A stretch of DNA of 38,947 nucleotides from Oscillospiraceae bacterium (GCA_009784085.1 WRCJ01000003.1:1-38947), one strand, 5' to 3'; positions 151 through 34,199 are shown, counted from the first letter of the stretch. Made by a program: numbers and translations. The notes: generated by a model from the sequence alone, not told the origin.

Positions 151-196
151 ACGCCGCCTTAAGGACACCGCGGACGCCGCCTAAAGGACACCGCGG
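151..196. repeat. 23-bp tandem duplication spanning the kinase stop codon
   Basis: ACGCCGCCTTAAGGACACCGCGG / ACGCCGCCTAAAGGACACCGCGG, 1 mismatch. Confidence 0.9.
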
Positions 197-1605
197 ACGG
201 CGGGCAGGCACAGCGTCATCTTTGTGCCAAGGCCGCGGCGGGAGATGGCGGTCAGCCGACCCCCGTGGCGATGGGCTATCCAACGCGCAATGGATAGCCC
301 CAAGCCCGTGCCTCCCGCCTTATGGGCGCGGGATGCGTCCGATCGGTAGAAGCGGTCAAAGATATATGGCAGGTCTTCCGGCGCGATACCGACGCCCCCG
401 TCGGACACCGAGGCCCAGACCCAACCGCCCATTCCGGCGCCCGACGTCACCGTAACCGGCAACCCCTCCCCGTACTTGAGGGCGTTGTCCAACAGGATGC
501 GCAATGCCTGGCGGCACAGCGCCCTGTCCGCCACAACCGGCGCGGCGGCGGGTTGCACGGTGATCTCGCAGAGCGGGAGGGCCACACGCATATCGCGGAC
601 CAGCTCTTCGCACAACGCGCCCAAATCCATGGGCTCGGGCGAAAGCTCGATGGCGTCGCTGTCGCCCCGCGCCAAAAAGAGGAGCTGCTCGACCATATCG
701 GACATCCCTTTTGCCTCGCTTTTGAGCGCGTCGATAGATTCCTGGCGCACGTCCGGGTCGGTCTTGCCCCAGCGATCCAACAGGTTGACATACCCGATGA
801 TAACGGCGATGGGCGTGCGCAATTCATGGGATGCGTCGGACACGAACCGCGCCTGTGACGCATAGGCCGCCTCGATGCGATCCAGCATGGCGTTGATGGC
901 GCCGGCCAGCGGACGGAGTTCCTCTGGCGCTTCGTCTTCGTTTATCCGATGGTGCGGGCGCCGCCCGTCGATGTCGTGCAACGCGCCAGCCAAGCTGTCC
1001 ACCTGATTGGGGTTCGATGGCCGCGCGGACAACGCGCTGGCGCGATCGACCATGTCGTTTATCGGATCCAAGGCGCGGCGGATAGATCGCGCCCCTTTGT
1101 GTATGCTCATCAAGAACCAGAAGAGTTGAAATCCAAACAGGATATAGAGAATCGTCCGCAGGTCATTCAGCGCCGGTCCCACCTGGCAGACGATTTTTAC
1201 GCCCGGTTCGGGCAGCCAGAGGGTGTAGACGCCGCCGCTCGGCCATACTGGGAAAAACCAGCCGGAGGAAAACCGCATGTACCGCACCATGCCGGCCTGG
1301 GGCATGGGCGTCAGCGGCCGCAGGTAATGCGGCAACGCCACCCCGCCGGACGGGCGGTCGGTACACACGATCAGCGAGATCGCCCCCTCGCTGGCCAAGA
1401 CCGCCCCTTCCTCGCCGGACAGGATGGTTTGTTTATGCAAAACGGCTTGTGCCTCAGCCTCGGCCCGCCGCAGTGTCCAGCCAAACAGCAACGAGGCCAG
1501 CAACACATCCCCGAGCAGGAGGATCCAAAGGATACGGCGCAAAAAGCGCAGGTTGAGCCGACTGGCTTTGTATAGGCGTTGGCCGGGCGGACGTTTCTGT
1601 TTCAT
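181..1605 (-). CDS. HAMP-domain sensor histidine kinase (OmpR/EnvZ class)
   Basis: Two TM segments, H-box SHELRTP, N-box LLDNA, G1 DGGVG, F-box IFDRFYR, G2 GTGLGL. ATGA overlap with the response regulator. Confidence 0.95.
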   Translation of the reverse strand: MKQKRPPGQRLYKASRLNLRFLRRILWILLLGDVLLASLLFGWTLRRAEAEAQAVLHKQTILSGEEGAVLASEGAISLIVCTDRPSGGVALPHYLRPLTPMPQAGMVRYMRFSSGWFFPVWPSGGVYTLWLPEPGVKIVCQVGPALNDLRTILYILFGFQLFWFLMSIHKGARSIRRALDPINDMVDRASALSARPSNPNQVDSLAGALHDIDGRRPHHRINEDEAPEELRPLAGAINAMLDRIEAAYASQARFVSDASHELRTPIAVIIGYVNLLDRWGKTDPDVRQESIDALKSEAKGMSDMVEQLLFLARGDSDAIELSPEPMDLGALCEELVRDMRVALPLCEITVQPAAAPVVADRALCRQALRILLDNALKYGEGLPVTVTSGAGMGGWVWASVSDGGVGIAPEDLPYIFDRFYRSDASRAHKAGGTGLGLSIARWIAHRHGGRLTAISRRGLGTKMTLCLPAVRGVL

Positions 1606-2270
1606 CGAATCACATACCCCACGCCCCGAACGGTTTCAATCAGTTTCAGACCTCGGGGCTCCTCCAGTTTGGCTCGCAGATAACGGATATAGACATCCAC
1701 CGTGTTGGCGCCGCCGTCGTAGGTGTAGTCCCAAACACGGTTGAGCAAGGTATCCCGGCTCAGTACGATGCCCCGGTTTTCCATCAGGCAGTGCAACAGG
1801 TCGAATTCCCGGCGGCTCAGGTGGACAGGTTCGCCGTTCACGGCGACCGTCCGGCTTTCCGGGTACAAGGCCAGCGCGCCCACCGACACCTCTTTGCCCG
1901 CTCTGTGGCGGGATCGCAACAGGGCCCGGATACGCGCCAGCAATTCCTCGATAGCGAAAGGCTTGGTCATGTAGTCGTTGGCGCCGCAATCCAAACCGGT
2001 GACCTTGTCGGTTACGGCGTCGCGGGCGGTAAGTAGCAAGACCGGCATCTCGGGCTTGTCGCGCCGCAGACGCCGCAAAACCTCCAAACCGGACAATTCG
2101 GGGAGGAGTATGTCCAACAGCATCAGATCGAAGTCGGCGGACAGCGCCCGGGACAGCCCTTCCCGCCCGTCATAAGCCTTGTCGACCGCGTACCCTTCAT
2201 GGGTCAGCTCCAGCTCCAGGAAGCGGGCCAGCTTGCGCTCGTCCTCAACGATTAAGATTGTCCCCTTCAT
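1602..2270 (-). CDS. OmpR/PhoB-family response regulator
   Basis: Receiver domain (VEDE, LLDILLP, LTAR, KPF) plus winged helix (VDVYIRYLRAKL, ETVRGVGY). Confidence 0.96.
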   Translation of the reverse strand: MKGTILIVEDERKLARFLELELTHEGYAVDKAYDGREGLSRALSADFDLMLLDILLPELSGLEVLRRLRRDKPEMPVLLLTARDAVTDKVTGLDCGANDYMTKPFAIEELLARIRALLRSRHRAGKEVSVGALALYPESRTVAVNGEPVHLSRREFDLLHCLMENRGIVLSRDTLLNRVWDYTYDGGANTVDVYIRYLRAKLEEPRGLKLIETVRGVGYVIR

Positions 2271-3159
2271 CCCTTTTACCCGCCGTCCCTTGAGTTCCTT
2301 GAGTTCCTTGCGTTCTTTGACAGTCCTTCTTTATTTTTTCCGCAGCCTGAGCCGCGGAGTTCATCACGTCATTCGCGCCGCGCCTCATGTCTGGCCCCCA
2401 GAAACTATAGCGGTAGTCGAAGAAGAGACCTACGATCAGCAGGGCGATAATCCACCAGAAGACCGGAAAGATCAGGATCACAACCATAACGGTCAGAGGG
2501 ATCGACAGGATGTATTCTTCGCGCCGGTGGACGGCGAACTTGTTGATGTTGCCCTTGTGGATGATCCGCCCGATAAAACGCAGAAAGCGGCTGACCAGCT
2601 GGGAGAAGCTCTCCCCGGGCGGGGGAGACGTCCACGCCGCGCCGCCGCCGCCATCACGATGACTGTTACCGCCGCCGCCATGACCACTATGCCTACGGTG
2701 CCCGTTATCGCTGTTGCCGCCGCCGCCGCCGCCGGCCGCCTTTTTTGCGCTTTCAGGCGGCGGTTCCGCCTCGCCATGATCAACCGCCGCCGATGGGCCG
2801 CCCCCGCTGGCCGATGGGCCGCCCCCGCTGGCCGATGGGCCGCCCCCGCTGGCCGATGGGCCGCCGCCATTAACCGCCGATGGCTCGCCGCCGCTACCGC
2901 CGCCATCGCCACGGCGCCCGCTACCGCCGCCACGGTGCCCGTTGTCGCCGCCGCTACCGCCGTTATCGTCGCCACCGCCATCGCCATCGCCGCCGTTATT
3001 CGTCCCGTTTCCACGCGGCGGTGCGATCCGGCCGCGCTGCTCCAGCAAAATGGCCGCTTCCAGCAAATCGTCGCCGGTTTCCTCTAAAACGGCCCTGGCC
3101 TCCTCTGCACTGATGCCGGCGTACGCACACAGCTTATCCACTTGTTCCCGCGTCGGCAT
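2245..3159 (-). CDS. DUF4342-like membrane protein with N-terminal UBA-like domain and a Gly-rich repeat linker
   Basis: N-term MPTREQVDKL...EARAVLEETGDDLLEAAILLE; C-term IIHKGN...LSIPLTV, TM, YRYSF. GGAGG lies upstream of ATG 3159. Overlaps the start of the response regulator. Confidence 0.7.
   Translation of the reverse strand: MPTREQVDKLCAYAGISAEEARAVLEETGDDLLEAAILLEQRGRIAPPRGNGTNNGGDGDGGGDDNGGSGGDNGHRGGGSGRRGDGGGSGGEPSAVNGGGPSASGGGPSASGGGPSASGGGPSAAVDHGEAEPPPESAKKAAGGGGGGNSDNGHRRHSGHGGGGNSHRDGGGGAAWTSPPPGESFSQLVSRFLRFIGRIIHKGNINKFAVHRREEYILSIPLTVMVVILIFPVFWWIIALLIVGLFFDYRYSFWGPDMRRGANDVMNSAAQAAEKIKKDCQRTQGTQGTQGTAGKRDEGDNLNR
2789..2868. repeat. 21-bp coding tandem repeat (GGGPSAS, about 4 copies)
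   Basis: GCCGATGGGCCGCCCCCGCTG x3 plus a partial copy. Confidence 0.95.
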
Positions 3160-3261
3160 AACGATCGTCCTCCACCCCACCCCATAAAATGCCTACTCGA
3201 TTGTTTGGGGTATAAGCAGTGCCTATCATATCGCACACACATTGGGTTATCCTTTGACAAA

Positions 3262-3303
3262 GATTAAGGTTTCATGAGAATTAAGGATTAAGGTTTCATG
3301 AGA
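3262..3303. repeat. Duplication spanning the M20 gene stop codon
   Basis: GATTAAGGTTTCATGAGA at 3262-3279 and 3286-3303, with an extra ATTAAG between. Confidence 0.85.
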
Positions 3304-4744
3304 GTTGCTGTTTCCCGCCTGCCATGTGGGTAATCAAACGCCCGTAAAACGCCATGGCCAATCCAAGGCTGTCCACCGAAACGCGCTCGTCCCGCCCGTG
3401 TACGCCGGCCATTTCGGCTTGGCTGAGTATGAAGGGCGAGAATCGGTAAACGTTGTCGGAAAACATTTCATAATGGAGCGCGCTCGTGGTTTGCGCCAGC
3501 AGGGAGGGGATCACAGGCACCGGGCCGAACACGGTGCGCACAATCTCGGCGATGGAGGCAAAAGCATCGCACTGGTAGTCGGAAATCTTGCTGGCTTCAT
3601 GCGAGGACACGGCCATGAGGCTCACATCCAAACCAATAAACAGATCCCGCAAATAGCGCAGGACATCGTCGCAGGTTTCCCCATGCAACAGCCGGATATC
3701 CAATGTGGCTTCCGCTTTGGTCGGCAAGGCATTGGCGGCTTTCCCCGCGTGCAGGGCGGTGGGCGTGATGGTCGTACGCGCCCAGGAGGGCTCGAAGGCG
3801 GCCAGATGCCGGGCCAGCAACCACCGGTTCGCGATATACAAACGCCAGCCAAAGGAAAGGTTGGGCGCCAAGAGCTTCAGAAAGGCATGAACATGGGGCG
3901 TCACGCGGGAGGGATACTTTTTGAATTCCGTGCGGCTTATCGCTTCGCAAACGGCGCCCAAGGCCGTCCGCCGCTCGGGCTCGGACGCATGCCCGCCGTT
4001 GCTTTGGGCGGTCACGCGCACGTAGGCCGCGCCCTTTTCCGCCACGCAGATCTCGGCGACAGGCCTGCGCAAGGACAAGACGCCGCGTTTCAAGACGCCC
4101 CCCTCGTCCAAGATCATCTCGAAATGCAGGTGGCGGCGGGCGAATACGCGGGCGATCTCCCCCGAACCGTCCTCGCCCCCCACCTCGTTATCATGCCCGA
4201 AGGCAAAATAGATATCGCGCTTTGGCACAAAACCGGAGTTGATGAGGGATTCGGCGCACTCCAACAGGCAGGCGACGACCTGCTTGCCATCCAGCGCGCC
4301 GCGGCCCCACACGTATCCGTCGGAAATGATGCCCTCGAAGGGCCCGACTTGCCACCCTTCTTCGGCGGGAACGACATCGAGATGCCCGCAAAACAGCAAC
4401 GGCGGGCCCGTGGGACGAGGGGCCGGCCATCGATACAACAGGCTGTGCAAGCCGACGACCTCCCGCTCCATGGTCGAGTGTGCCCGGGGATAGCGCCATT
4501 TGAGATAGTCGCGCAAGCGCACCCACTCGGTGTAGTCCCCCCCGGCGCCGGGCGAGACCGTTTGAAAGCGAAGGAGTTCGCCCAGGCTGTCAGCCGCGTG
4601 GCGGCAAACCTCCGGATCGGCCGCGCGGGGATAAATCGGGCTTGTCCGCTCCCGTTTGAGCCTCGCCGCCCGCACCAAGACCGACACCAAGGTCAGAAGC
4701 AACGCGGCGGCGATCCCGATGAGTATATACCAACCAACGCCCAT
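3296..4744 (-). CDS. M20/M25/M40 family metallo-hydrolase (PM20D1/carboxypeptidase S-like), N-terminal TM anchor
   Basis: GHLDVV, GRGALDGK, GHDNE (canonical HDEE), LDEGG, GGHAS and HGRDE motifs. Confidence 0.88.
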   Translation of the reverse strand: MGVGWYILIGIAAALLLTLVSVLVRAARLKRERTSPIYPRAADPEVCRHAADSLGELLRFQTVSPGAGGDYTEWVRLRDYLKWRYPRAHSTMEREVVGLHSLLYRWPAPRPTGPPLLFCGHLDVVPAEEGWQVGPFEGIISDGYVWGRGALDGKQVVACLLECAESLINSGFVPKRDIYFAFGHDNEVGGEDGSGEIARVFARRHLHFEMILDEGGVLKRGVLSLRRPVAEICVAEKGAAYVRVTAQSNGGHASEPERRTALGAVCEAISRTEFKKYPSRVTPHVHAFLKLLAPNLSFGWRLYIANRWLLARHLAAFEPSWARTTITPTALHAGKAANALPTKAEATLDIRLLHGETCDDVLRYLRDLFIGLDVSLMAVSSHEASKISDYQCDAFASIAEIVRTVFGPVPVIPSLLAQTTSALHYEMFSDNVYRFSPFILSQAEMAGVHGRDERVSVDSLGLAMAFYGRLITHMAGGKQQLS

Positions 4745-4783
4745 GATGGTTACTATCCCCCCTTCCGAATTTTTTAATCAGTG

Positions 4784-5203
4784 TCAGTGGCAATGGGCGC
4801 AATCGGCGTCACATCCGACAATCGGCGTCGGATCGATGCCCTGGCGCCGGTAATAATCGGCGATGGCCGATTTGATGGCCTCTTCGGCCAGCACGCTGCA
4901 ATGCATTTTGACCGGCGGCAAGCCGTCCAGCGCCTCGGCCACGGCCTTGTTGGACAGCATCAATGCCTCGGTGATGCTTTTGCCCTTGACCAGCTCGGTG
5001 GCCATGCTGGAGGTTGCCACGGCGGCGCCGCAGCCGAAGGTCTTGAACTTGACATCCTCGATCACCTCGTCCACGATGCGCATGGTCATCTTCATGATAT
5101 CGCCGCATTTTGGGTTGCCCACCTGGCCCACGGCGTTGGCGTCGGCCACCTCGCCCACGTTACGGGGATTCGCGAAATGATCCATCACTTTGTCTGTATA
5201 CAT
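4784..5203 (-). CDS. iscU: Fe-S cluster scaffold IscU/NifU
   Basis: DHFANPRNVG, GNPKCGD, FKTFGCG, LPPVKMHCS; Cys-rich tail CDADCAHCH. Confidence 0.96.
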   Translation of the reverse strand: MYTDKVMDHFANPRNVGEVADANAVGQVGNPKCGDIMKMTMRIVDEVIEDVKFKTFGCGAAVATSSMATELVKGKSITEALMLSNKAVAEALDGLPPVKMHCSVLAEEAIKSAIADYYRRQGIDPTPIVGCDADCAHCH

Positions 5204-5278
5204 AGCTATAATGCACCTCGCTATATCAATAATCTGTATACTATTTTATTTAAATATATGTCGCTTAAATATATTAAT

Positions 5279-6502
5279 TTACTGTATTGGCTTCTGCGCG
5301 GCGGCGTCCCACAGCGGCGACATCGCCCTGCCCCGCGCCACGGCGGCGATTACCTGGCTGATGAGATAGTCAACCTGTTCCGGCGTCGTATCCCCGCTAA
5401 TGGTTAGGCGTAGCGAACCATGCGCGACCTCATGGGGCAAACCCAACGCCAGCAACACATGGGACGGGTCGAGGGAGCCGGAGGAACACGCCGAGCCGGA
5501 AGAAGCGCACACGCCGGCCATGTCCAAATTCAGCACCAGCGACTCGCCCTCCACGCACGCAAACACAAAGGAAGCGTTCCCCGGTAGCCGATTTTCCGGA
5601 TCTCCCGTCAAAAAGGCGTACGGTATGGCGGACAGGGCGGCAATCAGCCGGTCGCGCATCGCGGAGGTGCGCCGGATATCCTCCGCCATCCCCAGCGTGG
5701 ATTCGCGTAGCGCGGCGGCCATGCCCACAGCGCCCGCCACGTTTTCCGTGCCGCTGCGCAGGCCGCGCTCGTGGCCTCCGCCATGCAACAGCGGCGGCAG
5801 CCGCACGCCCCGCCTCAGGAAGAGGGCGCCGATGCCCTTGGGGCCGCCGAACTTGTGTCCCGACAGGGAAAGCATATCCACTGGCAACGACGACAAATCA
5901 AGGGGGATATGCCCTATCGCTTGCACGGCGTCGGTATGGAACCACACGCCGGACGCATGGCACAGCCGACCGATCTCCTCGATGGGCTGTATGGTCCCCA
6001 CTTCGTTGTTGGCGGTCATGCAGGAGACAAGGACTGTGTCCGGGCGCAAAGCTTCCTGCACTTGCGAGGCCGCAACCCGCCCCAGCTTGTCCACGGGCAA
6101 CACGGTAAGCTCGAAACCCTGTTTTTGCAAGTGTTGGGCGGTATGCAGTACAGCATGGTGTTCGATGGCGGAGACAATCATGTGCCGGCCGTCCTGGGCG
6201 CCCCGGCCTCCCCGGTCGCGCTGGCCGCCCTGGCCGCCCTGGTTGCGCTTGGCTTCGCACGCGCCCACGAGCGCCCAGTTGTCAGCCTCGGTGCCGCCGG
6301 CTGTGAAATAGATCTCCTCAGGGGCGGCGCCCAACGCCCCGGCGATTGTCCGGCGCGCGTCTTCCAAGGCGCGGCGGGCATCCCTGGCCACCGAGTAGAT
6401 CGATGAGGCGTTGCCGTAGTTCTCTTCCAGAAACGGCCTCATGGCGGAAAGCGCCGCCGGGGACAAGGGCATGGTAGCCGCGTTATCAGCGTAAACAAAC
6501 AT
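5279..6502 (-). CDS. iscS: Cysteine desulfurase IscS/NifS
   Basis: YADNAAT, GNASS, HTDAVQ, SGHK (PLP Lys), SSGSACSS. AAGGAGG RBS precedes ATG 6502. Short Gly/Gln-rich insertion NQGGQGGQRDRGGRG. Confidence 0.95.
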   Translation of the reverse strand: MFVYADNAATMPLSPAALSAMRPFLEENYGNASSIYSVARDARRALEDARRTIAGALGAAPEEIYFTAGGTEADNWALVGACEAKRNQGGQGGQRDRGGRGAQDGRHMIVSAIEHHAVLHTAQHLQKQGFELTVLPVDKLGRVAASQVQEALRPDTVLVSCMTANNEVGTIQPIEEIGRLCHASGVWFHTDAVQAIGHIPLDLSSLPVDMLSLSGHKFGGPKGIGALFLRRGVRLPPLLHGGGHERGLRSGTENVAGAVGMAAALRESTLGMAEDIRRTSAMRDRLIAALSAIPYAFLTGDPENRLPGNASFVFACVEGESLVLNLDMAGVCASSGSACSSGSLDPSHVLLALGLPHEVAHGSLRLTISGDTTPEQVDYLISQVIAAVARGRAMSPLWDAAAQKPIQ

Positions 6503-6541
6503 AGCCCATTCGACCTCCTTAACCTCGTTCGTGACACCATC

Positions 6542-6570
6542 ATCATACGCCACAAAGCCGATTCTGTCAA
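6542..6570 (-). promoter_or_regulatory. SigA-type promoter of iscS-iscU
   Basis: TTGACA-N17-TATGAT on the minus strand. Confidence 0.8.
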
Positions 6571-6611
6571 GAATCCCCTGCACATGCCCTGCACATGCCC
6601 CCCCGCCCAGA

Positions 6612-6705
6612 CAAAGCGCAGGTATTGCCCCGGCAAAGCGCAGGTATTGCCCCGGCAAAGCGCAGGTATTGCCCCGGCAAAGCGCAGATATTGCCCCGGC
6701 AAAGC
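6612..6705. repeat. 22-bp tandem repeat, about 4.3 copies, in the iscS/trxA divergent intergenic region
   Basis: CAAAGCGCAGGTATTGCCCCGG x3, a fourth copy with one mismatch, then a partial copy. A separate CCCTGCACAT-type duplication lies at about 6576-6600. Confidence 0.95.
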
Positions 6706-6916
6706 CCCGATCAAAAAGCCAGCCGAATCCCCTAGCGCGCGCAGGGTGATTTTTGCCCCCCGTATGGCGAAGATATAGAAAGTTTTCAAAAAAACATGCC
6801 GAAAAGAAATTGCCTTTTTGCATTTGTTATGATAGAATAGTTTTGGATGCATAGACACCCCCGCTATATGGAGGCGGGTTTTTGGCGCAATTTGAATTAC
6901 AATTGGAGGGTATCCT

Positions 6917-7243
6917 ATGTCTTCTATCATCGCCTTAACGTCTGACAATTTCGAGTCTGAGGTCATAATGTCGCCCGGCCTTATCCTTGTGGATTTTTGG
7001 GCCTCCTGGTGCGCGCCGTGCCGCGCAGTCGCCCCTTTGTTGGAACGCCTGTCCGAGGAGGAGGAGCTTTCTGGGCGCGTCAAGATTGGCAAACTGGACG
7101 TGGACGCCGAGGGCGCGCTGGCCGCCAAGTATGGCGTGATGAGCATACCTACGATCATTGTGTTTTCCCAGGGCCGGGAGACGAAGCGTCAGGTGGGCGC
7201 GCGTTCCTACAAGGAATTGCTCAAGCTGGTGGAAGAAGTGTAA
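6917..7243 (+). CDS. trxA: Thioredoxin
   Basis: VDFWASWCAPC, KLDVD, YGVMSIPT; GGAGG RBS. Confidence 0.96.
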   Translation: MSSIIALTSDNFESEVIMSPGLILVDFWASWCAPCRAVAPLLERLSEEEELSGRVKIGKLDVDAEGALAAKYGVMSIPTIIVFSQGRETKRQVGARSYKELLKLVEEV

Positions 7244-7256
7244 AGTGTAAAGTGTA
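7236..7256. repeat. 7-bp repeat x3 of the trxA stop region
   Basis: AAGTGTA x3, giving TAA at 7241, 7248 and 7255 (all three frames). Confidence 0.85.
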
Positions 7257-7365
7257 AGTTAGCGTCCCCGGTACGGCAAGGAAGCCACGAAGGCGGCACC
7301 CGAAGGAATTCGGCGGCGGCTGGGGATCCGCGCCGGGGCCGTGACGAAAATGTTGGTTGAGGTGA

Positions 7366-8262
7366 ATGGAAATGGCGGACTCAGGAAAAAGGTTCAGGTT
7401 TACACCCGTTGGCGGTTTTCGCCGGCAAGACGTCATCACGTACATTGAGAAATTGATGAAGGAACACCACGAGGAGATTGACGCTTGCCGGGCAGGCGCC
7501 GAACAGTTGCGCCGCGAGCGGGACGATGCGCGTGAGCGGGCGGCGTTAGGGCAGATCAAAGTCGAGGAGCTAACGCTCAAATCAAAGCAGCTTCCCTATA
7601 TGCAATCCGACGTGGAATCCCTCAAGTCGCGCCTCAATCAGCTGGCGGTGGAAAAGACGCGCCAAAGCGAGACGCTGCAGAAGCTGGAGGGCGCCAGGGA
7701 GGGTGACCGGACCGCGCTGTCGCGCCTTCAATCGCTCCTGGCCGAGAGAGAAAGCAAGCTGCAATCCCTGCAAAAGCAGATCGATGATTTTATCGTCTCG
7801 TACGCGAGCGCGGAAGAACTCGAGAGAAAAGCCGTCGAGCGGGCGCGGGCTATCGAGACCGAAGCGTTGGCAAACGCGGAGCACTCGCGCGAGCTGATCA
7901 CCCGCCTGTGGATGGACACCAAAGATCGATACACGGCGTTTTGCCGGGAAGCCGAGGAAGCTACCGCCGTCGCCGTACAAGAGCTGGACAAGGTGCGCGC
8001 GTTACTGATCGGCGCCAGCCACATGTTCGACGGCGTAAACAGTAGCCTGGATGAATTGCCCCTGCCGGAAGAGGAGCCTTTCGCCTCCGCTGGGGCAGAG
8101 CCGATTCTGCCGCTTTCGGGCGAAGCGTCCTCCCTGCTCGATATGCTTGCCCAGCAGAAACAAGCCCAAATCGACCGGCAAGCCCCTGCCGCCCCTGCCG
8201 AAGACGACGGCGCGGCGCCCGGTGAATACAAAGAGGACAAAGAGGACAAAGAGGATCTATAA
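7366..8262 (+). CDS. DivIVA-like coiled-coil protein (start may be 7372)
   Basis: N-term FRFTPVGGFRRQDVITYIEKL resembles the DivIVA membrane-targeting motif. Long heptad coiled coil, acidic tail with KED x3. Confidence 0.6.
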   Translation: MEMADSGKRFRFTPVGGFRRQDVITYIEKLMKEHHEEIDACRAGAEQLRRERDDARERAALGQIKVEELTLKSKQLPYMQSDVESLKSRLNQLAVEKTRQSETLQKLEGAREGDRTALSRLQSLLAERESKLQSLQKQIDDFIVSYASAEELERKAVERARAIETEALANAEHSRELITRLWMDTKDRYTAFCREAEEATAVAVQELDKVRALLIGASHMFDGVNSSLDELPLPEEEPFASAGAEPILPLSGEASSLLDMLAQQKQAQIDRQAPAAPAEDDGAAPGEYKEDKEDKEDL

Positions 8263-8272
8263 GGACCCGAAA

Positions 8273-8308
8273 ATAGCCCGTCGGCGTATCATCTCGCCGA
8301 CGGGCTAT
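8273..8308. terminator. Intrinsic terminator between convergent genes (probably bidirectional)
   Basis: Perfect 14-bp stem ATAGCCCGTCGGCG / CGCCGACGGGCTAT; T-tract on the minus strand. Confidence 0.8.
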
Positions 8309-8360
8309 CGAGTTGTCGCCTAACGCCTGACGCCTGACGCCTCGCGCCTTACGCGCCGCC

Positions 8361-8519
8361 TCACGCATCCTCAAACATGTCTTTGCCCACACCGCAGGCG
8401 GGGCAGACGAAATCGTCCGGCACATCAGCCCACGCGATACCCGGGGCAATGCCGTCATCGGGATAGCCTTCGGCCTCGCTGTACACATAGCCGCACACGC
8501 TGCAAACATATTCTTTCAT
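8361..8519 (-). CDS. Rubredoxin (52 aa, not in the ORF track)
   Basis: [52 protein letters not shown], two CxxC motifs, AAGGAG RBS. Confidence 0.96.
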
Positions 8520-8596
8520 TGTGGGACACGCTCCTTTTGCTTTAAATTTTGTTATTTTGGTTTGCTATATTCTAGTTTGTTTTGTTCGATCATACC

Positions 8597-9673
8597 CTAC
8601 ACGTATTTTACCAAAACTTCCGCATTCACGCAATAGGCAAAGGCATCTTCCCGCGTAATATGCCCTGCCCTGACCGCGTCTGCCAACGCCAGATCCATGC
8701 TCTGCATCCCTTCGGTTCCGCTGGCGTGGATAACGGTATCGATCTGATGCGTTTTTGCCTCGCGGATCATGCTGCGGATGGCTGGGTTGACCAGCATGAC
8801 CTCGAACACAGCCAAGCGGCCCTTGGTGTGGGAAGGCAGCAGCTGCTGGGACACCACCGCCTGCAGTACGGTGGACAGCTGGATGCGCACCTGGTTTTGC
8901 TGGTTGGGGGGGAATACATCCATGATGCGGTCGATGGTTTTGGCCGCGCCCACCGTGTGCAGGGTGGACAGCACCAAATGTCCTGTTTCCGCGGCGGTCA
9001 GGGCGATGGAAATGGTCTCATAGTCGCGCATCTCGCCCACCAGGACGACGTCTGGGGACTGGCGGAGGGCGGCGCGCAACGCCGTGGCGTAGGACTCCGT
9101 GTCCGATTCGACCTCGCGCTGGTTGACGATGCTCATCTTGTGGTTGTGCAGGTATTCAATGGGATCCTCCAGCGTCAAGATGTGGCAGTTCCGTTTGTGG
9201 TTGATGAGGCTGATGAGGCTGGAGAGCGTGGTGGATTTCCCCGAGCCGGCCGGCCCGGTCACCAGCACCAGCCCTTTGGTCTTCCGGTAGAGATCCAGCA
9301 CCGCCGGCGGAATCCCCAGCGTCTGCGCGTCCGCCAGCGACAGCTGCACCACCCGGATGACCGCCGCCATGGAGTTGCGTTGCCGGAAAGCGTTGATGCG
9401 AAACCGCCCCACGCCGGGCAGTGAGAAGGAAAAATCGCAGTCGCCGCTTTTCAGGTACTCTTCATAGGAATGATTGCCAGACAGGCGGAAGATTTCCTCA
9501 ATAAACAACGCCGTATCTTTGGGCATCATGCGAAAATCGCTGGACGGCGCGATTTCGCCTTGCCTCTTAAACATGATTGGGCTGCCGGCGGTGATGAACA
9601 GATCGGATACATCTTCGTTGACAGCGCGAACCAATAGATCGTGTACCGTTGTGCCAAGTGATGAAGCAATCAT
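8597..9673 (-). CDS. pilT: Type IV pilus retraction ATPase, PilT/PilU family
   Basis: Walker A GPAGSGKST, Asp box TLEDPIE, Walker B VVLVGE, His box HLVLSTLH, AIRSMIRE motif; lacks a PilB-type N-terminal domain. Confidence 0.93.
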   Translation of the reverse strand: MIASSLGTTVHDLLVRAVNEDVSDLFITAGSPIMFKRQGEIAPSSDFRMMPKDTALFIEEIFRLSGNHSYEEYLKSGDCDFSFSLPGVGRFRINAFRQRNSMAAVIRVVQLSLADAQTLGIPPAVLDLYRKTKGLVLVTGPAGSGKSTTLSSLISLINHKRNCHILTLEDPIEYLHNHKMSIVNQREVESDTESYATALRAALRQSPDVVLVGEMRDYETISIALTAAETGHLVLSTLHTVGAAKTIDRIMDVFPPNQQNQVRIQLSTVLQAVVSQQLLPSHTKGRLAVFEVMLVNPAIRSMIREAKTHQIDTVIHASGTEGMQSMDLALADAVRAGHITREDAFAYCVNAEVLVKYV

Positions 9674-9707
9674 TTCCCTACCCTTGTCCTTTTTATGCTT
9701 ATTATCC

Positions 9708-10265
9708 TTATTTCAATAGGCCGCCAAAAGCCGCGATATCTGGTTCTGACTCTCCCCCGGGACCGTCACTGAGAACTTGAGATTCCAACAAAGATAATAC
9801 ATCATCGTCGAATTCCGTAATGATATTCTGGCCCACATTGTAGTCAAAGCGATCCTGGAATTCCAGCCAAGAGAGGACATCCCAGCGAATCCCCCCCGCG
9901 CCGCCGTCTTTCAGGGACAGCGTTACGGTGAGGTGCGCGGTGTCGCGGCTCACCGTCTGGGTCACGGTAAGCGGGCTGTGCGAAAGAACCTCCCAGTTGA
10001 GGGCCGCCACGGTCTCCAAATCGGCGTCGGAGATGTCCCCGTCGGATTTGGGAAAATCGCGGGCGACCGACTCCAAGCACCCGACTGCCTCACGGGCGGA
10101 GGCATCCAGCTTGTAATAATTGTTGATCCAATTGGCGTTTTTCTCGGCCAGCAGATAATTGGATCGGGCCGAATACAACGCCAGCAACGCGAAGGCGGAC
10201 AGGGCGATCATCAGCAAGATGATAAGCACCGAGACGCCGCCCGAAACCGAAGCTCTGTTTCTCAT
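9708..10265 (-). CDS. Pilin-like single-TM protein (PilX/GspK-like minor pilin candidate)
   Basis: Short basic leader, G|VSVLIILL hydrophobic helix without E5; overlapping genes in the PilC-PilT operon. Confidence 0.5.
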   Translation of the reverse strand: MRNRASVSGGVSVLIILLMIALSAFALLALYSARSNYLLAEKNANWINNYYKLDASAREAVGCLESVARDFPKSDGDISDADLETVAALNWEVLSHSPLTVTQTVSRDTAHLTVTLSLKDGGAGGIRWDVLSWLEFQDRFDYNVGQNIITEFDDDVLSLLESQVLSDGPGGESEPDIAAFGGLLK

Positions 10266-10813
10266 GGCGCTTCCCCTTCCCCTTCAACTCCCGCGACGCT
10301 GAGGTCAGGTGGCGGGTAGACGGTCTTAAACCTCGTATCCTCCTGGGCGGGATCCAGCCGGATGACCGTGACCTCCGGACAGCGTAGCTTCGCCGGTGCC
10401 GCGTCCTGCGCCGATGCCGATGTCGCGTCCGGCGCCGATGCCGAGGACAGCTCCGCGACCGAGACCGAGACCGAGACCGATAAGACAAACCCGCGATCCG
10501 GCTTATCGGCTACCGGATGCCACTCGCTGTCATAGTAGATTTCCCAGCTACCCTCGCCGTTTGCGCTGAGGGGCCGCACCCAGTTGCCGCCCGGATCCAC
10601 GGGCTCCCCATAGAGGCGGCACAACTCGACGACGCTCTGGGCTTCCATGCAAGCCCGATCCAGATCCCGCGCGCGGTCTTCCCAACTGGCCGCGCGGACA
10701 AACAGCTGCATCACGACAATGCTCACGGCGGCCAACGCGCCGATGGAGATGATCAACTCGACCAGCGCGATAGCCCGGTGACCCGCGGCCCCGAAGCCGC
10801 GCCGCCGCCTCAT
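10262..10813 (-). CDS. Prepilin-type protein
   Basis: MRRRRG...RA|IALVELIIS class III-like signal with E5. ATGA overlaps at both ends. Internal SV x4 and SASAPDAT/SASAQDAA repeats. Confidence 0.7.
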   Translation of the reverse strand: MRRRRGFGAAGHRAIALVELIISIGALAAVSIVVMQLFVRAASWEDRARDLDRACMEAQSVVELCRLYGEPVDPGGNWVRPLSANGEGSWEIYYDSEWHPVADKPDRGFVLSVSVSVSVAELSSASAPDATSASAQDAAPAKLRCPEVTVIRLDPAQEDTRFKTVYPPPDLSVAGVEGEGEAP

Positions 10814-11316: not shown

Positions 11317-11336
11317 GAGTAATCACCTCTTCATTC

Positions 11337-11654: not shown

Positions 11655-11673
11655 TACGTTCCTCCTCCTACCC

Positions 11674-12723: not shown

Positions 12724-12756
12724 GGTTACTCCCTCCAAGCGGTTGATCTTGCCAGT

Positions 12757-13954: not shown

Positions 13955-13974
13955 AAAAAATATCCTCCAAAAAC

Positions 13975-22646: not shown

Positions 22647-22686
22647 CTATTTTGTCCCTACGCCCTGCTATTTTGTCCCTACGCCC
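22647..22686. repeat. 21-bp-period duplication of the glgP last codons and stop
   Basis: CTATTTTGTCCCTACGCCC at 22647 and 22668. Confidence 0.9.
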
Positions 22687-25079
22687 CAGATGTATTTGGC
22701 GTATTGGGCGATGCTGCGATCTGCCGCGAACTGCCCGGCGGCGGCGATGTTTTTCAGCGACATGCGGTTCCACAAGTCCGGGTTTTTGTACACCGCAAAG
22801 GCCCGGCGCCGCGCCGCGCAATAGCTGTCAAAGTCGGCGAGCAGGAAGTAGGTGTCCCGCAGTAGCAGGGAGGAGGAGATGTCGCCATACGACACGCCGT
22901 CGGAAAACCCGCAGGCGATGCGGTCAACCACCCGCTTGAGGTCTGGGGAGTGGTTGTAATACTGCATGGGCTCGTAGCCTCCGCTGTGCAAGCGGGAGAC
23001 CTCGTCGGCGCGTAAGCCGAACAGGAAGAAATTGTCCGGGCCCACCAGTTCCTCGATCTCCACGTTGGCGCCGTCCAGCGTCCCCATGGTCAACGCCCCG
23101 TTGAGCATTAGCTTCATGTTGCTCGTGCCGGAAGCCTCTTTGCCGGCGGTGGAGATCTGCTCGGACAGCTCAGACGCAGGGATGAGCATTTCGGCGAGGG
23201 AAACCCGGTAGTTTTCCAGGAAAACCACCTTGATGCGGCCTTTGACATCCTCGTCGTTGTTGATTTGCTCCGCCAAGCTCCAGATCAGCTGGATGATGCG
23301 CTTGGCCATGAGATAGCCGGATGCCGATTTCGCGCCGAACAGGAACGTGACGGGCGTCATGTCCAAGTTGGGGTTGTCGCGCAGATCGTTGTAGAGCTTC
23401 ACGATGTGCATGACGTTGAGCAATTGCCGCTTGTACTCATGCATGCGCTTGATCTGCACGTCGAGGAGCGAGTTGGGATCGATCAAGATGCCGCTGCTCT
23501 TCTGGATGAAGGCGGCTAGTTTTTCCTTGTTGCGGCGTTTGATGAGGGCCAGCTTGTCCAAGACATCGCGGTCCCCCATGTACCGCTCCAGCTTGAGCAG
23601 ATCGTAAGGCCGCGTCAGGCAGTCGTCGCCGCATAGCTCCCGCACAAGCTCATACAGGCCGGGGTTGATCTGCGCCAGCCATCTCCGGTGGTCGATGCCG
23701 TTGGTGATATTGAAGAACTTTTGCGGCGCGCGGCTGTAGGCATCGGAAAAGACATACGTACGCAGGATGTGGGTGTGCAGTTCAGACACGCCGTTGATGG
23801 CAAAACACGCGCATAAGCACAGGTTGGCCATGCGCAGTTCGCCGTCCCAAATGATGGCGCTGTTTTCCTGCTGTTCGTTGTCGTAGTGATAGACATCCCG
23901 CAATTCTCTCTGGAAGCGGTCGTTGATTTCGCGCAAGATAAGCCAAATACGGGGCAGTAGCATCTCGATGAGGGGTTGCGGCCAGCATTCCAACGCCTCC
24001 GCCATGACCGTGTGGTTGGTGTAGGCTACCGTATGCGTAACAATGTACCACGCCTCGTCCCAGTCCATGCCCTCCTCGTCGAGGAGGATGCGCATAAGCT
24101 CCGGGATGGCCAGCGTGGGGTGCGTGTCGTTGATCTGGATGACATGCCGCAAGTGGAAATCGCGCAACGTCCCATGCCGGCTACGGTGGACGCGGACGAT
24201 AGATTGTATTGTCGCCGACACCAAAAAGTATTGTTGCCGCAGGCGCAGCAACTTGCCCTCGAAGTGGTTGTCCTCCGGATACAGCACCTTGGATATGACT
24301 TCGGCCATCGCGTTTTGCTCTACCGCACGCAGGTACTCCCCCCGGGAAAAGAGAGACATGTCAAACTGCACGGGGGACTTAGAGTCCCACAGCCGCAAGG
24401 TATTGACATGCTGTGTGTCGTAGCCGGAAATGACCATGTCCATGGGGACGGCCAGCACGGAGGTAAAGCCCTGGTAATACGGCTGTGCGCGGCCATCCTC
24501 CCAGCGCATCTCGACATGCCCGCCGAACTTCACCTCCACGGTTTCGTCCATGCGGGGCAGTAGCCAGACATCGCCGGTCTCCATCCACGGGTCGGGCAGT
24601 TCCACCTGCTGGCCCTCCACAATCTTTTGCCGAAAGATGCCATAGTGGTAGCAGATGGAGTATCCGGTCGCCGGGATATCCAATGTGGTCATGGAGTCCA
24701 GGTAGCAGGCCGCCAAACGGCCCAAGCCGCCGTTTCCCAGGCCGGCGTCGGCTTCGGCCTCGAAGATATCGTCCGGGTCCACTTCCAGGTAGCGCAAGGC
24801 GGATATGATATCGTCCAGCATCTCCAAGTTGTAGGCGTTTTTCCGAAGGGATTGGCCCAGCAGGAATTCGAGGGAAAGATAATGCACCTGCCGTTTGTCG
24901 CTTTTTTTCCTTTCCTCGGTCCCCACGGCCAAGCCAGCCGACATGCGATCCCGCACCAGCATGGCGCAAGCTTTGAAGAGTTGTTCTGTTGAGGCTTCGG
25001 GTATTTCCCTGCCAAATTGATGTCGTACCTTATCGGCAATTACATTGGCCAAGTCTATTTGTGTACCTGAATAAGCCAT
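22668..25079 (-). CDS. glgP: Glycogen phosphorylase
   Basis: YLSLEF, GLGNGGLGRLAAC, INDTHP, QIKRMHEYKRQ, EASGTSNMKLMLNG. Confidence 0.97.
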   Translation of the reverse strand: MAYSGTQIDLANVIADKVRHQFGREIPEASTEQLFKACAMLVRDRMSAGLAVGTEERKKSDKRQVHYLSLEFLLGQSLRKNAYNLEMLDDIISALRYLEVDPDDIFEAEADAGLGNGGLGRLAACYLDSMTTLDIPATGYSICYHYGIFRQKIVEGQQVELPDPWMETGDVWLLPRMDETVEVKFGGHVEMRWEDGRAQPYYQGFTSVLAVPMDMVISGYDTQHVNTLRLWDSKSPVQFDMSLFSRGEYLRAVEQNAMAEVISKVLYPEDNHFEGKLLRLRQQYFLVSATIQSIVRVHRSRHGTLRDFHLRHVIQINDTHPTLAIPELMRILLDEEGMDWDEAWYIVTHTVAYTNHTVMAEALECWPQPLIEMLLPRIWLILREINDRFQRELRDVYHYDNEQQENSAIIWDGELRMANLCLCACFAINGVSELHTHILRTYVFSDAYSRAPQKFFNITNGIDHRRWLAQINPGLYELVRELCGDDCLTRPYDLLKLERYMGDRDVLDKLALIKRRNKEKLAAFIQKSSGILIDPNSLLDVQIKRMHEYKRQLLNVMHIVKLYNDLRDNPNLDMTPVTFLFGAKSASGYLMAKRIIQLIWSLAEQINNDEDVKGRIKVVFLENYRVSLAEMLIPASELSEQISTAGKEASGTSNMKLMLNGALTMGTLDGANVEIEELVGPDNFFLFGLRADEVSRLHSGGYEPMQYYNHSPDLKRVVDRIACGFSDGVSYGDISSSLLLRDTYFLLADFDSYCAARRRAFAVYKNPDLWNRMSLKNIAAAGQFAADRSIAQYAKYIWGVGTK

Positions 25080-27613: not shown

Positions 27614-27693
27614 GGGCGTTCTCCTCCTCGCAAAATCAGAAAATCAGCTGTTCAGCTATTTAAATTCATCATTTACATCACATCAAATTCACA

Positions 27694-28824
27694 TCACACG
27701 ATACTGCCCTTCCCGATGGCTATCGGATACGTGGCATGCCCCATCAACATGCGGCCGGGGCCGATGACGACCTCTTTGTCGGTGATGGCGTACCCCAGGA
27801 TGGCGCCTGCCGAGACCTTCGTGTCCTGCATCAGGATGCTGTTGTGGACACGGGCGCCGGATTCGATGCGCACGCCCCGGAAGATGACGCTGTTTTCCAC
27901 ATCGCCCTCGATAAAGCAACCGTCGGCCACCAAGCAGTTGCTGACCCTGGCGGCGGGCGCGTAGTACGTGGACGTGTCGTCGCGCACCTTGGTTTTGACG
28001 GGCCGGTCCTTCAAAAACAGGGAGGCGCGCACCTCCGCCCGCAACATACTCATATTGTGCTCAAAATAGGAAGCCACCGTGGACATGCGCGCGGCAAAGC
28101 CGTTGAAAACGTAGCCGGACACCTTCAGCGTCCCCAACATGCCCTGGAGGACATCGCGCTCGAAGTCGTACAGGTTGTGGGCGGCGCAATGGGCCACCAG
28201 CGTCTCGAGTAGCTTTTTGGAAAGGATATACACCCCCAACGATTCCGTCGTATCGAGCATGTCCCTGCCGCGGGCAATGTCGGTGACGATATCATCGTCG
28301 TCCATCTGCAAGAAGCAGGCGCATTCGGCCTGGCCCAGCCGACGGGGGGTACACAACGCGGTGATGTCGGCGCCGTTGGCGATGTGATGCCGAAGGGCGT
28401 CCTCCAGCGGGAGGTTGGCCACCAGGCAACCCTCGGCGAGCACCACGTACTCCTGGCGGATATGGGACAGGTAGGAGGTGATGTCGAACAGGGCGGCCAT
28501 GCTACCCAAGAACACGCCCTCGTAAGGGCCCTTGCCCGCGAAGCTAAAGGGAGGCAAGAGGCGCAGACCGCCCCGCTTGCGGGACAGATCCCAGTCCTTG
28601 CCCGAACCCAGGTGATCGAGCAGGGATTGGTAGTTTTCGCGCATGATCACCCCCACGTCGGTGATCCCGGCGCCCACCATATTGGAGAGCATAAAGTCGA
28701 TGACCCGGTAGCGCCCGCCAAAGGGCAAAGACGAAACGGATCTGTGTTCCGTCAGCTCCTTGAGGCGCGTGCCGCCGCCGCCGGCATAGGCGAAAATGAG
28801 TCCATGCATATCCTTCATCGTCAC
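27694..28824 (-). CDS. glgD: ADP-glucose pyrophosphorylase regulatory subunit
   Basis: LKELTEHRSVSSLPFGGRYRVIDF, HLGSGKDWDLSRK, hexapeptide C-terminus; downstream of glgC. Confidence 0.95.
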   Translation of the reverse strand: MTMKDMHGLIFAYAGGGGTRLKELTEHRSVSSLPFGGRYRVIDFMLSNMVGAGITDVGVIMRENYQSLLDHLGSGKDWDLSRKRGGLRLLPPFSFAGKGPYEGVFLGSMAALFDITSYLSHIRQEYVVLAEGCLVANLPLEDALRHHIANGADITALCTPRRLGQAECACFLQMDDDDIVTDIARGRDMLDTTESLGVYILSKKLLETLVAHCAAHNLYDFERDVLQGMLGTLKVSGYVFNGFAARMSTVASYFEHNMSMLRAEVRASLFLKDRPVKTKVRDDTSTYYAPAARVSNCLVADGCFIEGDVENSVIFRGVRIESGARVHNSILMQDTKVSAGAILGYAITDKEVVIGPGRMLMGHATYPIAIGKGSIV

Positions 28825-32086: not shown

Positions 32087-32159
32087 TTACGTTGCCTGCG
32101 TCTTTTATGATTGCCTGCGTCTTCTACGTTGCCTACGTCCCTTACGTTGCCTGCGTCTT
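32087..32159. repeat. About 18-bp repeat x4 of the pduL last five codons and stop
   Basis: TTACGTTGCCTGCGTCTT at 32087 and 32142, with two diverged copies between. Confidence 0.9.
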
Positions 32160-32747
32160 CTTGACGACCAAACCGGTCTCCCCGCCGGATAGTCCGGCGG
32201 CGTTGTATTCGTCGATGTCGATGTGCATGCGGGTGCGGAAGCGGGGCGATTCGCGCACAATCACTTCGTCGAATATCAGCGCACGTGGGCCGCCGATTTC
32301 CACCCGCACGACTTCCTTGTCGGACAGCCCGTACAGGGCGGCATCCTCCGGCGTGATATGGATGTGCCTCTTGGCGGCGATGACGCCTTCGGGGACGTCC
32401 ATCGCGCCGCATGGCCCGACCAGGCGGCAGGGGGCCGAGGCGGCGACCTGCCCGCTCTCGCGGATGGGCGGGGCAATGCCCAGCCGGCGCGCGTCGGAGA
32501 GCGACAGCTCGACCTGCGTGTCCGGGCGTTCCGGGCCCAAGATGGATACGCGATCGATCCCGCCCCGGGGGCCCTCCACGCGCACCTTTTCCTCTGTCAG
32601 GAACTGGCCGGGCTGGGATAGCTCGCGGACATTGTGCAAGGCGGCGCCCGGCCCGAACAAGGTGGCCAGCGCCTCGGCGGTCACGTGGACATGGCGGGCC
32701 GACGCCTCGACAATAATATGAAGCTGTGGATACATCGGAAAGGTCAC
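32142..32747 (-). CDS. pduL: Phosphate propanoyltransferase/phosphotransacylase PduL
   Basis: EASARHVH, ELSQPGQF, LGPER, IRESG, RHIH, MHIDIDE. Confidence 0.93.
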   Translation of the reverse strand: MTFPMYPQLHIIVEASARHVHVTAEALATLFGPGAALHNVRELSQPGQFLTEEKVRVEGPRGGIDRVSILGPERPDTQVELSLSDARRLGIAPPIRESGQVAASAPCRLVGPCGAMDVPEGVIAAKRHIHITPEDAALYGLSDKEVVRVEIGGPRALIFDEVIVRESPRFRTRMHIDIDEYNAAGLSGGETGLVVKKTQAT

Positions 32748-33046: not shown

Positions 33047-33751
33047 ATGCGTGAATCTTTTTGCCGCACGCTTTCCTTGTTGCGTCGCGACAAGGGCGTT
33101 AGCCAGAAGACGGCGTCCACCGAGCTGGGGATATCGCAGGCACTGCTTTCCCACTACGAGAAAGGGACCCGCGAACCTGGCCTGGCTTTCGTGGTGCGCG
33201 CCTGCGAGTATTATGGCGTGTCCGCCGATTTTCTGCTGGGGCGCACGATGCTGCGCGACGGCACGCTGGTTTCCCCCGAGGCGTTGCACGACGCCGCGGA
33301 CGACAAAGACAACAGGTTGCGCGGCAATGTGTCCGCCCTGCTTCATAAGAAATTGCTCATCAGTGCCATCAGCCTGCTGTTCGACCTGCTTGGCCGCTCC
33401 CGGGACAAGGCGCTCATCGACTCTGCCTCGGCGTACCTGAGCGACGCGGTATATATCGTCTTCCGACATCTATACGAGGCGGCCGGGGACAACCCCGCCG
33501 CCTCGTTTGGCATCCCCGGCGCGCTGTTTTCCTTGGCCGCCGCCGCCGACATGGCCCGCCGCGAGGCGCAGCTCAGCTCGCGGCTGTGCCGCGCCAAAGG
33601 GAAAAGGGACAAAAGGGATGACGTGCCGACAATCCCGCCGCTGTCCCATGACATGCTGTTGTCCGAATACCCCCAGCTGGCCCAGTCCCTCTATATGCTT
33701 TTGCAGCAGACAGGGGAGAGGATTCAGTTCGACGCCGACGTGCTGGCGTAG
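33047..33751 (+). CDS. XRE-family HTH regulator with an uncharacterised C-terminal domain
   Basis: LRRDKGVSQK...LGISQALLSHYEKGTREP...YYGVSADFLLG; GGAGG RBS. Confidence 0.88.
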   Translation: MRESFCRTLSLLRRDKGVSQKTASTELGISQALLSHYEKGTREPGLAFVVRACEYYGVSADFLLGRTMLRDGTLVSPEALHDAADDKDNRLRGNVSALLHKKLLISAISLLFDLLGRSRDKALIDSASAYLSDAVYIVFRHLYEAAGDNPAASFGIPGALFSLAAAADMARREAQLSSRLCRAKGKRDKRDDVPTIPPLSHDMLLSEYPQLAQSLYMLLQQTGERIQFDADVLA

Positions 33752-33810
33752 CTTGCGCTGGCGTAGCTTTGTGGAAAGGCTTGTTAAACCATGACGGAGA
33801 TCGTAGGATC

Positions 33811-34155
33811 ATGACGGAGGTCAGGCATGTCAACCTGGAAGCCGGGTACCCCACCGCAGACGCCGCCGTTAAACGGCTGACGTACGAACTGCACACCTCC
33901 CGCCACCTGGGGTACAAGGCGGTGAAACTCATTCACGGGTATGGGTCGTCGGGGCCAGGCGGGCGCATCCGGGTGGAAGCCCGCGCCTATCTGGCCAGAT
34001 TACTGCGCCGAAGGCAGCTTGCCATGATCCTGACAGGCGAGCAGTTTTCCATCTTCGACCAAGCCACCCGCGACGCCTTCGCCCTCTGCGGGGAACTGCG
34101 GCGCGACAGCGATCTGGACAGGCACAACAACGGGGTCACGTTCGTGATATTGTGA
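33811..34155 (+). CDS. Smr/MutS2 C-terminal-like small protein
   Basis: VNLE.G.PT...A, KLIHGYGSSG, N.GVTFVIL. Confidence 0.8.
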   Translation: MTEVRHVNLEAGYPTADAAVKRLTYELHTSRHLGYKAVKLIHGYGSSGPGGRIRVEARAYLARLLRRRQLAMILTGEQFSIFDQATRDAFALCGELRRDSDLDRHNNGVTFVIL

Positions 34156-34199
34156 TATTGTAGTGATGCGATGATGCGATGATGTAATAATGCAATGCT
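34144..34199. repeat. 8-bp periodic, progressively diverging repeat at and after the Smr stop
   Basis: GTGATATT GTGATATT GTAGTGAT GCGATGAT GCGATGAT GTAATAAT GCAATGCT. Confidence 0.8.

Follow-up and report, generated by a model that had tools for sequence, protein, structure and literature searches.

Short tandem duplications at stop codons and throughout the genome of an Oscillospiraceae bacterium

The stretch of DNA analyzed here, 38,947 nucleotides (nt) long and referred to as the window, makes up all of contig C3 in G000, a metagenome-assembled genome (MAG) of an Oscillospiraceae bacterium (GCA_009784085.1, WRCJ01000003.1). An earlier note, made by a model from the sequence alone, described a stutter at stop codons: many genes in the window are followed by tandem copies of their own last codons and stop. 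We describe these arrays in the window, in the remainder of the genome and in related genomes, and weigh how they came about. The G000 assembly comprises 1.61 Mb in 146 contigs, the shortest of 2513 nt, with 87% completeness and a G+C content (GC) of 58.8%. Its DNA is matched in termite-gut metagenomes, and its glycogen phosphorylase has its closest named relatives in Oscillospiraceae MAGs, at 72–73% identity. Arrays were identified by running Tandem Repeats Finder (TRF) on all contigs and merging its output, with score cut-offs of ≥30, ≥40 or ≥50 as indicated.

Tandem arrays at gene ends in the window

Pfam searches agreed with the gene names given in the earlier note for the kinase, M20, IscU, thioredoxin, rubredoxin, glgP, GlgC/GlgD-like, PduL and XRE genes; the match to Smr was weak (20.3 bits, under the cut-off). 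Read on the coding strand, eight of the ten stop sites listed in that note carry clear tandem copies that include the last codons and the stop. The histidine kinase gene (181–1605, minus strand; HisKA/HATPase_c) ends in an array at 151–199, in which a 23-nt unit in 2.1 copies spans the last codons and TAG (TRF score 91, 96% match), the stop of the second copy having mutated from TAG to AAG. At the glycogen phosphorylase gene glgP (22668–24962, minus strand; Phosphorylase), a perfect 21-nt unit in 1.9 copies covers the last codons and TAG (22647–22686, score 80), and at pduL (32142–32747, minus strand; PTAC) a diverged and nested array of 4.1 18-nt units does the same with TAA (32088–32161, score 97, 77% match). 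The thioredoxin gene trxA (plus strand, end at 7243; Thioredoxin) has 3.1 perfect copies of a 7-nt unit across its TAA (7236–7257, score 44), and the claim that these copies place stops in all three frames holds. For the M20 peptidase gene (3296–4744, minus strand; Peptidase_M20), an 18-nt stretch with TGA is present in two copies 24 nt apart, which enclose a 7-nt doublet (3262–3303); this duplication is absent from the TRF list, and an exact motif search finds the two copies. The remaining clear cases are a degenerate array of 7-nt units close behind the end of the rubredoxin gene (8361–8519, minus strand; Rubredoxin; array 8317–8365), two copies of about 14 nt with TAG at 33742–33769 behind the XRE-type helix-turn-helix (HTH) gene (33077–33751, plus strand; HTH_31/HTH_3), which fall below the TRF threshold, and the end of the Smr-like gene (33769–34155, plus strand; 34144–34184), where 2.2 copies of an 8-nt unit over the TGA (34144–34161) are followed by 2.6 copies of another 8-nt unit (scores 36 and 42). 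In the rubredoxin case, TRF reports 8317–8354 (83% match, score 48), which ends before the stop codon at 8361–8363, so the TGA is reached solely by the most degenerate unit.

Two of the ten sites are weak. The 6-nt doublet at the iscU stop (NifU_N; 4778–4789, minus strand, two copies) is at chance level, since exact 6-nt doublets number 1371 in the genome, and is not counted as a duplication. The GlgC/GlgD-like nucleotidyl transferase gene (27694–28824, minus strand) has an irregular 5-nt array at its stop (27675–27698), with a TRF score of 32, 80% match and 10% indels; in the 30–39 score class, a simulated genome (third-order Markov model of G000) yields 335 arrays against 828 real ones, so that about 40% are expected by chance. 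A further site, missed in the earlier note, lies over the stop of a gene at 9708–10229 (minus strand; 9687–9712, 9 nt in 2.9 copies, score 38). Including it, the window has 36 stops of which 7 lie inside an array at score ≥30. No unit is common to any two of the ten listed sites, in line with the statement that the units are gene-specific and not a mobile repeat.

Arrays are also found away from stops, a class that the earlier note did not weigh: 24 of the 41 window arrays at score ≥30 lie inside genes. The gene at 2245–3180 contains 3.7 perfect, in-frame copies of a 21-nt unit (2789–2865, minus strand, score 154), and an AMP-binding enzyme gene (Pfam) contains an in-frame 69-nt unit in 2.0 copies (38639–38776, minus strand, score 269), the second copy of which is missing from the best-matching relative sequence (28-residue gap in the subject). 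In the gene at 7366–8262, an in-frame 9-nt unit in 3.1 copies sits at the C-terminus just before the stop (8228–8255, plus strand, score 56). Upstream of the assigned start of a cysteine desulfurase gene (5279–6583; Aminotran_5), 4.6 copies of a 22-nt unit occupy 6605–6705 (no strand assigned, score 181), beside a smaller array of 2.3 11-nt units at 6576–6600 (score 50). At 18494–18526, a 15-nt unit in 2.2 copies surrounds the start of a gene (18485/18524–19954), doubling the ATG and first codons, which represents a rarer, start-spanning class.

Three window stretches (12900–14000, 19000–22500 and 36000–37500) have a GC of 45–51% against about 59% and almost no tandem arrays; they are probably recently acquired DNA. 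No tRNA was found in the window with ARAGORN. At its start, the window carries the 3′ end of a group II intron (74–147, plus strand; Rfam RF00029, 41.4 bits at a gathering score of 40); the same 109 nt are found at the end of contig C36 (G000:C36:15253–15361). In sequencing run X1, taken up below, depth is 216 over window positions 1–667 and about 8.5 elsewhere; the intron element is therefore multi-copy or common to many organisms of the sample.

A genome-wide load of short duplications

The window arrays belong to a much larger population. Across G000, the merged TRF arrays number 1967 (1.22 per kb) when the score is ≥30 and 761 (0.47 per kb) when it is ≥50, against 393 and 10, respectively, in the Markov-3 simulated genome that sets the chance level. 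At score ≥50, coding sequences hold 418 of the arrays and spacers 220; a further 94 run across a stop and 27 across a start. Those inside genes are strongly filtered for reading frame: the period is divisible by 3 in 388 of the 418 (93%), compared with 92 of the 220 intergenic arrays. Units are mostly particular to their locus: of 615 arrays with a period of at least 12 nt and a score ≥50, 545 have a unit without a similar match at any other place in the genome; with only the other 70 having one, the recurrence expected of repetitive extragenic palindrome (REP) or bacterial interspersed mosaic element (BIME) types is not seen. A separate, dispersed repeat family has units at about 20–29 places and also forms tandem arrays (G000:C67:177–226 and 299–518; C1:47155–47278; C92:4318–4394), unlike the locus-specific arrays.

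The shape of the arrays bears on how they formed. Among 530 exact arrays with a period of at least 9 nt, 478 consist of two copies, and these extend past the second copy by a mean of 3.3 nt where 0.69 nt is expected. The extension reaches at least 3 nt in 214 of the 478 (about 26 expected) and is zero in 128. Such an excess of microhomology is characteristic of duplications that form between short direct repeats, i.e., replication slippage or microhomology-mediated tandem duplication (MTD). Copy identity within arrays ranges from 60 to 100%; the duplication process is therefore old and ongoing, not a single burst. Array density also depends on base composition, rising from 0.06 per kb below 45% GC to 0.92 per kb above 66% (score ≥40), which agrees with the earlier remark that the low-GC genes of the window lack the stutter. 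This dependence fits either a recent arrival of low-GC islands or a stronger slippage of GC-rich microhomology.

To place this load, we compared G000 with 12 relatives. At score ≥50, its 0.47 arrays per kb exceed the relatives' 0.025–0.20 by 2.4- to 19-fold. Within the genus, densities are 0.20 (G001), 0.17 (G006 and G003), 0.12 (G005), 0.08 (G002) and 0.025 per kb (G004); members of the same family reach 0.105 (G014), 0.067 (G007), 0.05 (G009 and G017) and 0.045 (G016), and a genome of the same order 0.045 (G026). When the sampled sequence of the 11 relatives from the genus and family is pooled (1.15 Mb), array coverage is 2.8% for spacer DNA, 1.9% for stops (20 of 1040) and 1.7% for coding DNA. 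These classes rank as they do in G000, which surpasses the three values 5.4-fold, 6.5-fold and 2.0-fold, respectively, so that spacers and stops rise together and coding DNA much less. Since the relatives are only 65–83% identical even within genes, spacers could not be aligned, and individual arrays were therefore compared at the protein level. The extra copies of in-gene arrays are missing from the relatives' orthologues in 35 of 56 evaluable cases and partly missing in 10, with no gap in 11. A lineage-specific, slippage-type duplication process, as the earlier note had proposed, is thus supported by both the load and the missing copies. That note had also called for orthologous 3′ ends to be compared. 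C-termini lie within two residues of the orthologue in 20 of 31 genes with a stop inside an array and in 158 of 255 other genes, so protein ends are unchanged as often with an array as without one.

Stop codons and the origin of the arrays

How special, then, are stop codons? Arrays at score ≥30 cover 15.1% of intergenic and 3.4% of coding bases, and contain 163 of 1306 stop codons (12.5%) and 72 of 1309 start codons (5.5%). Over the final 50 nt of genes coverage climbs, and its maximum of 20% lies about 10–30 nt past the stop rather than on it. Judged from these figures and the position of the peak, stops are covered about like spacer DNA in general. Spacers between convergent genes are covered to 18%, those between tandem genes to 17% and those between divergent genes to 12%.

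Tandem (backup) stop codons are known as insurance against read-through, and the earlier note suggested that the duplicated stops of this genome might be kept for that purpose. Extra copies do add downstream stops, at trxA in all three frames, and a stop triplet is still present in 76 of 95 second copies of indel-free stop-spanning arrays. The details, however, do not bear the stamp of selection. The period is divisible by 3 in 38 of these 95 arrays (45 of 127 at score ≥40), where one third is expected, and 63 of the 95 second copies have an identical stop (66%), compared with 74% for other triplets. A stop triplet has moreover been retained less often in frame (26 of 38) than out of frame (50 of 57), and that of the histidine kinase array is already lost. 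With neither a frame preference nor extra conservation of the second stop, the suggestion is not supported, and we regard selective retention as insurance as very improbable.

We conclude that the stop-codon stutter is most probably one tolerated class of genome-wide, microhomology-mediated slippage duplications, which arise at a raised rate in this lineage and are filtered by selection, and that no device tied to the stop codon is involved. G000 makes or keeps short tandem duplications unusually often, with units mostly of 6–25 nt and often with a few bases of flanking microhomology. According to this account, arrays would expand and then decay, while selection would purge those duplications that break genes. 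The expected survivors are in-frame insertions within genes, arrays in spacers, and arrays that run from the last codons past the stop. The latter leave the protein unaltered, because translation ends at the first stop. The underlying cause is probably a duplication rate that is raised relative to that of point mutation.

Several points weigh against this account; they concern the reality of the copies, the counting, the gradient around stops and the lack of a cause. As to the first, G000 is a fragmented MAG, and support from the sequencing runs consists of assembled contigs. The Logan assembly of run X1 covers window positions 120–18834 gap-free in eight pieces and bridges all five listed sites there; its contigs break only within the two longest arrays of that region, including the one at 2789–2865. 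Run X1 is probably the source sample, in which case its contigs are not independent of the original reads. Runs X2 and X3 yield identical short pieces at low depth, one of which covers solely the weak iscU site. No indel at any array and no copy-number variant was seen in window positions 1–20000 among the contigs of these runs, although contigs lose rare variants. That the repeats are artefacts of assembly or amplification is nevertheless scarcely credible. An artefact would ignore the reading frame that 93% of in-gene arrays keep, which argues that the duplications are real; the copies have also diverged to differing degrees, and a second assembler yields the same arrays. De Bruijn assembly, furthermore, does not create units shorter than the read or k-mer. 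The counts, in turn, depend on gene coordinates from a crude codon-usage caller built for this analysis (1395 genes, 90% coding), and on relatives sampled at 60–200 kb each instead of as whole genomes.

The gradient around stops is the next objection. Under an event model of uniform tolerance (score ≥40), 127 stop-spanning arrays stand against 74 expected (binomial p = 5e-10), and start-spanning arrays are below expectation (39 against 59). Array starts number 8.0 per 1000 available positions at −10 to −1 of the stop end and 6.6 at 0 to 9, falling to 2.0 at 40 to 99. Local GC was rejected as the cause of this gradient, as a start remains 2.6 times likelier within 10 nt of a stop after control for it (odds ratio 2.6). 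Such an odds ratio may indicate a mutational hot zone near gene ends, for instance by polymerase stalling at terminator hairpins or by replication–transcription conflicts, in which mutation and not selection would concentrate the arrays. Repeat-poor relatives, however, show a similar ratio of near to far starts: 3.0 (score ≥30) and 3.1 (≥40) in G000 compared with 2.2 and 3.3 in the pooled relatives, the latter from small counts (22 of 12005 near and 31 of 37447 far positions for the ratio of 2.2). Where arrays survive or arise thus follows a gradient that is general and not distinctive of G000, and a general bias would not explain what is peculiar to this genome. Over half of the arrays, moreover, are inside genes, far from stops. 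Constraint alone can yield a gradient, because deeper spacer approaches promoters, ribosome-binding sites and unannotated small genes; arrays that overlap a coding sequence may in addition decay more slowly, with one copy under selection. Together with constraint on terminators, these effects could suffice, and we consider a hot zone at gene 3′ ends unlikely. The enrichment at stops that the earlier note proposed to test thus stands under uniform tolerance, but it does not set stops apart from spacers, and the gradient behind it is shared with relatives. Its further idea of a coupling to translation or transcription termination is not sustained, given that arrays occur in every type of location and that their roughly three-fold concentration at stops is equal in relatives.

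Instead of a raised duplication rate, relaxed selection and drift in a host-restricted symbiont might have let duplications accumulate. The small genome (1.6 Mb at 87% completeness), the termite gut, and the many in-frame protein insertions missing in relatives would suit such a history. The excess is distributed otherwise: the least-selected class rose most, with intergenic coverage up 5.4-fold over relatives against 2.0-fold for coding sequences, and the frame filter within genes is still strict. As the genome sizes of the sampled relatives are also similar, we hold drift to be quite improbable as the explanation.

If the duplication rate is indeed raised, a defect in replication or repair might be visible, and the earlier note had proposed an inventory of mutS, mutL, nucS and polymerase genes. 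Profile searches covered G000 and four congeners. A mismatch-repair-deficient mutator was rejected, as mutS (MutS_V 289.8 bits, 880-codon frame) and mutL (MutL_C 104.8 bits, 623-codon frame) are present. Loss of a flap nuclease (FEN1 or the 5′ nuclease of Pol I) came into question, since E. coli polA 5′-nuclease mutants show the same duplication signature as rad27/FEN1 mutants. This candidate was set aside on the basis of sequence conservation: the polA frame of 923 codons on G000:C26 matches the 5′ nuclease domain PF02739 with 181 bits, and its motifs align with those of two relatives, so the domain appears intact. The linker behind that domain carries a repeat-derived insertion rich in Asp, Ala, Ser and Gly with an 18-nt period, which the G004 and G002 proteins lack. 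A PcrA/UvrD helicase is present. The recJ gene is in two pieces (G000:C72:7–972, at a contig edge, and C91:4570–5343), and a MutS2-like gene is represented by two partial matches (G000:C114:3524–3994 and C37:15060–15353); both genes were probably broken by assembly, possibly at repeats. No defect that would explain the load was found among polA, mutS, mutL, pcrA/uvrD and recJ.

This leaves xseA (PF02601), which was detected in G000 neither by profile search nor by tblastn with the G002 protein (E ≤ 10). The gene for the small subunit of exonuclease VII, xseB, lies at the end of contig C36 (G000:C36:14046–15361), next to a gene whose G002 orthologue also comes after xseB. At the expected xseA site upstream of xseB, where G002 and G001 carry the gene, the G000 contig breaks off behind the 3′ end of a group II intron. 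With 87% completeness and a shortest contig of 2513 nt, a 1.4-kb gene between repeats would drop out of the assembly. The gene may thus lie in an assembly gap, and its absence is not callable as a loss; the repeat-rich congeners G001 and G006, for their part, have xseA. The inventory thus gives intact-looking mutS, mutL and polA, with xseA not found in an incomplete assembly. In E. coli, tandem repeats are reportedly kept stable by single-strand exonucleases (Feschenko, Rajman and Lovett 2003). One could therefore imagine the lineage as a natural tandem-duplication mutator, in which an inherited change in lagging-strand or single-stranded DNA processing, with exonuclease VII loss as one candidate, raises MTD at least five-fold over congeners, although we think this rather doubtful. 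If it were true, the genus, whose loads span 0.025 to 0.47 arrays per kb, would offer a natural series for studying what sets the bacterial duplication rate.

Whatever the cause, the analysis removes a tempting reading, a mechanism linked to stop codons, and illustrates that a neutral filter can turn an ordinary class of mutation into a striking pattern. G000 is a quantitative outlier, with about 15% of spacer DNA and one stop in eight in arrays, and congeners 2.4- to 19-fold lower. Comparison within this series of genomes could help to find the controls of bacterial tandem duplication, for which the recent MTD papers provide an answer for yeast Rad27 only. For annotation, C-terminal and linker repeats in G000 proteins should be treated with caution, as recent insertions and not as domains.

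Comparison with known kinds of duplication

A narrow literature search found no description of a stop-spanning duplication pattern in bacteria, and several known systems resemble parts of it. Tandem backup stops share with G000 the extra stop triplets shortly past the real stop and differ in the frame preference and extra conservation of the second stop that G000 lacks. Closer in form are bacterial variable-number tandem repeats (VNTRs) and minisatellites, whose locus-specific arrays of short units likewise occupy spacers and, where the frame is kept, genes, and differ greatly from lineage to lineage. Such loci, together with long simple-sequence repeats of 5–11-nt units, have reportedly been described by Mrazek et al. 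2007 and Zhou et al. 2014. What distinguishes G000 from them is the high density of its arrays in spacers and at stops. A survey of 117,861 genomes finds no enrichment of short tandem repeats in bacteria, on average, relative to shuffled genomes (PMC12699852). In Beggiatoaceae, TAACTGA heptamers are reported as dispersed intergenic direct repeats (PMC4679880). They resemble the arrays in G000 as short direct repeats of spacer DNA that in some cases include stop triplets, but there one motif recurs at many loci, whereas most units in G000 are unique in the genome.

A mechanistic parallel comes from yeast. Loss of the yeast flap endonuclease gene rad27 raises new tandem duplications 7–10-fold (PMC13167724). 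This signature agrees with G000 in producing duplications of a few to tens of bases between short direct repeats and in a rise of about the same size as the excess reported here, but in G000 the polA 5′ nuclease domain is conserved, so that an obvious loss of the flap nuclease is not the cause.

MTDs themselves are found across life, mostly neutral and depleted from coding regions, according to the same paper, and they or slippage-type duplications are also the subject of bioRxiv 10.64898/2026.02.28.708716. PMC8639346 adds that duplication is much more likely where microhomology is long and GC-rich, and that the MTD rate of E. coli is one twentieth of that in S. pombe. The G000 arrays share the features presented in these two MTD papers (PMC8639346; PMC13167724): head-to-tail, spacer-free local copies, microhomology at their ends, a genome-wide distribution, depletion from coding sequence and an in-frame bias where they do fall within genes. 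The rise of array density with GC is likewise in line with the statement on GC-rich microhomology (PMC8639346). The difference lies in the state of the events, which in those papers are mostly subclonal, whereas in G000 they are fixed arrays of one natural lineage with a load far above that of its congeners. The kind of duplication seen at the stop codons of this genome is therefore already known, and G000 is a heavily loaded member of it.

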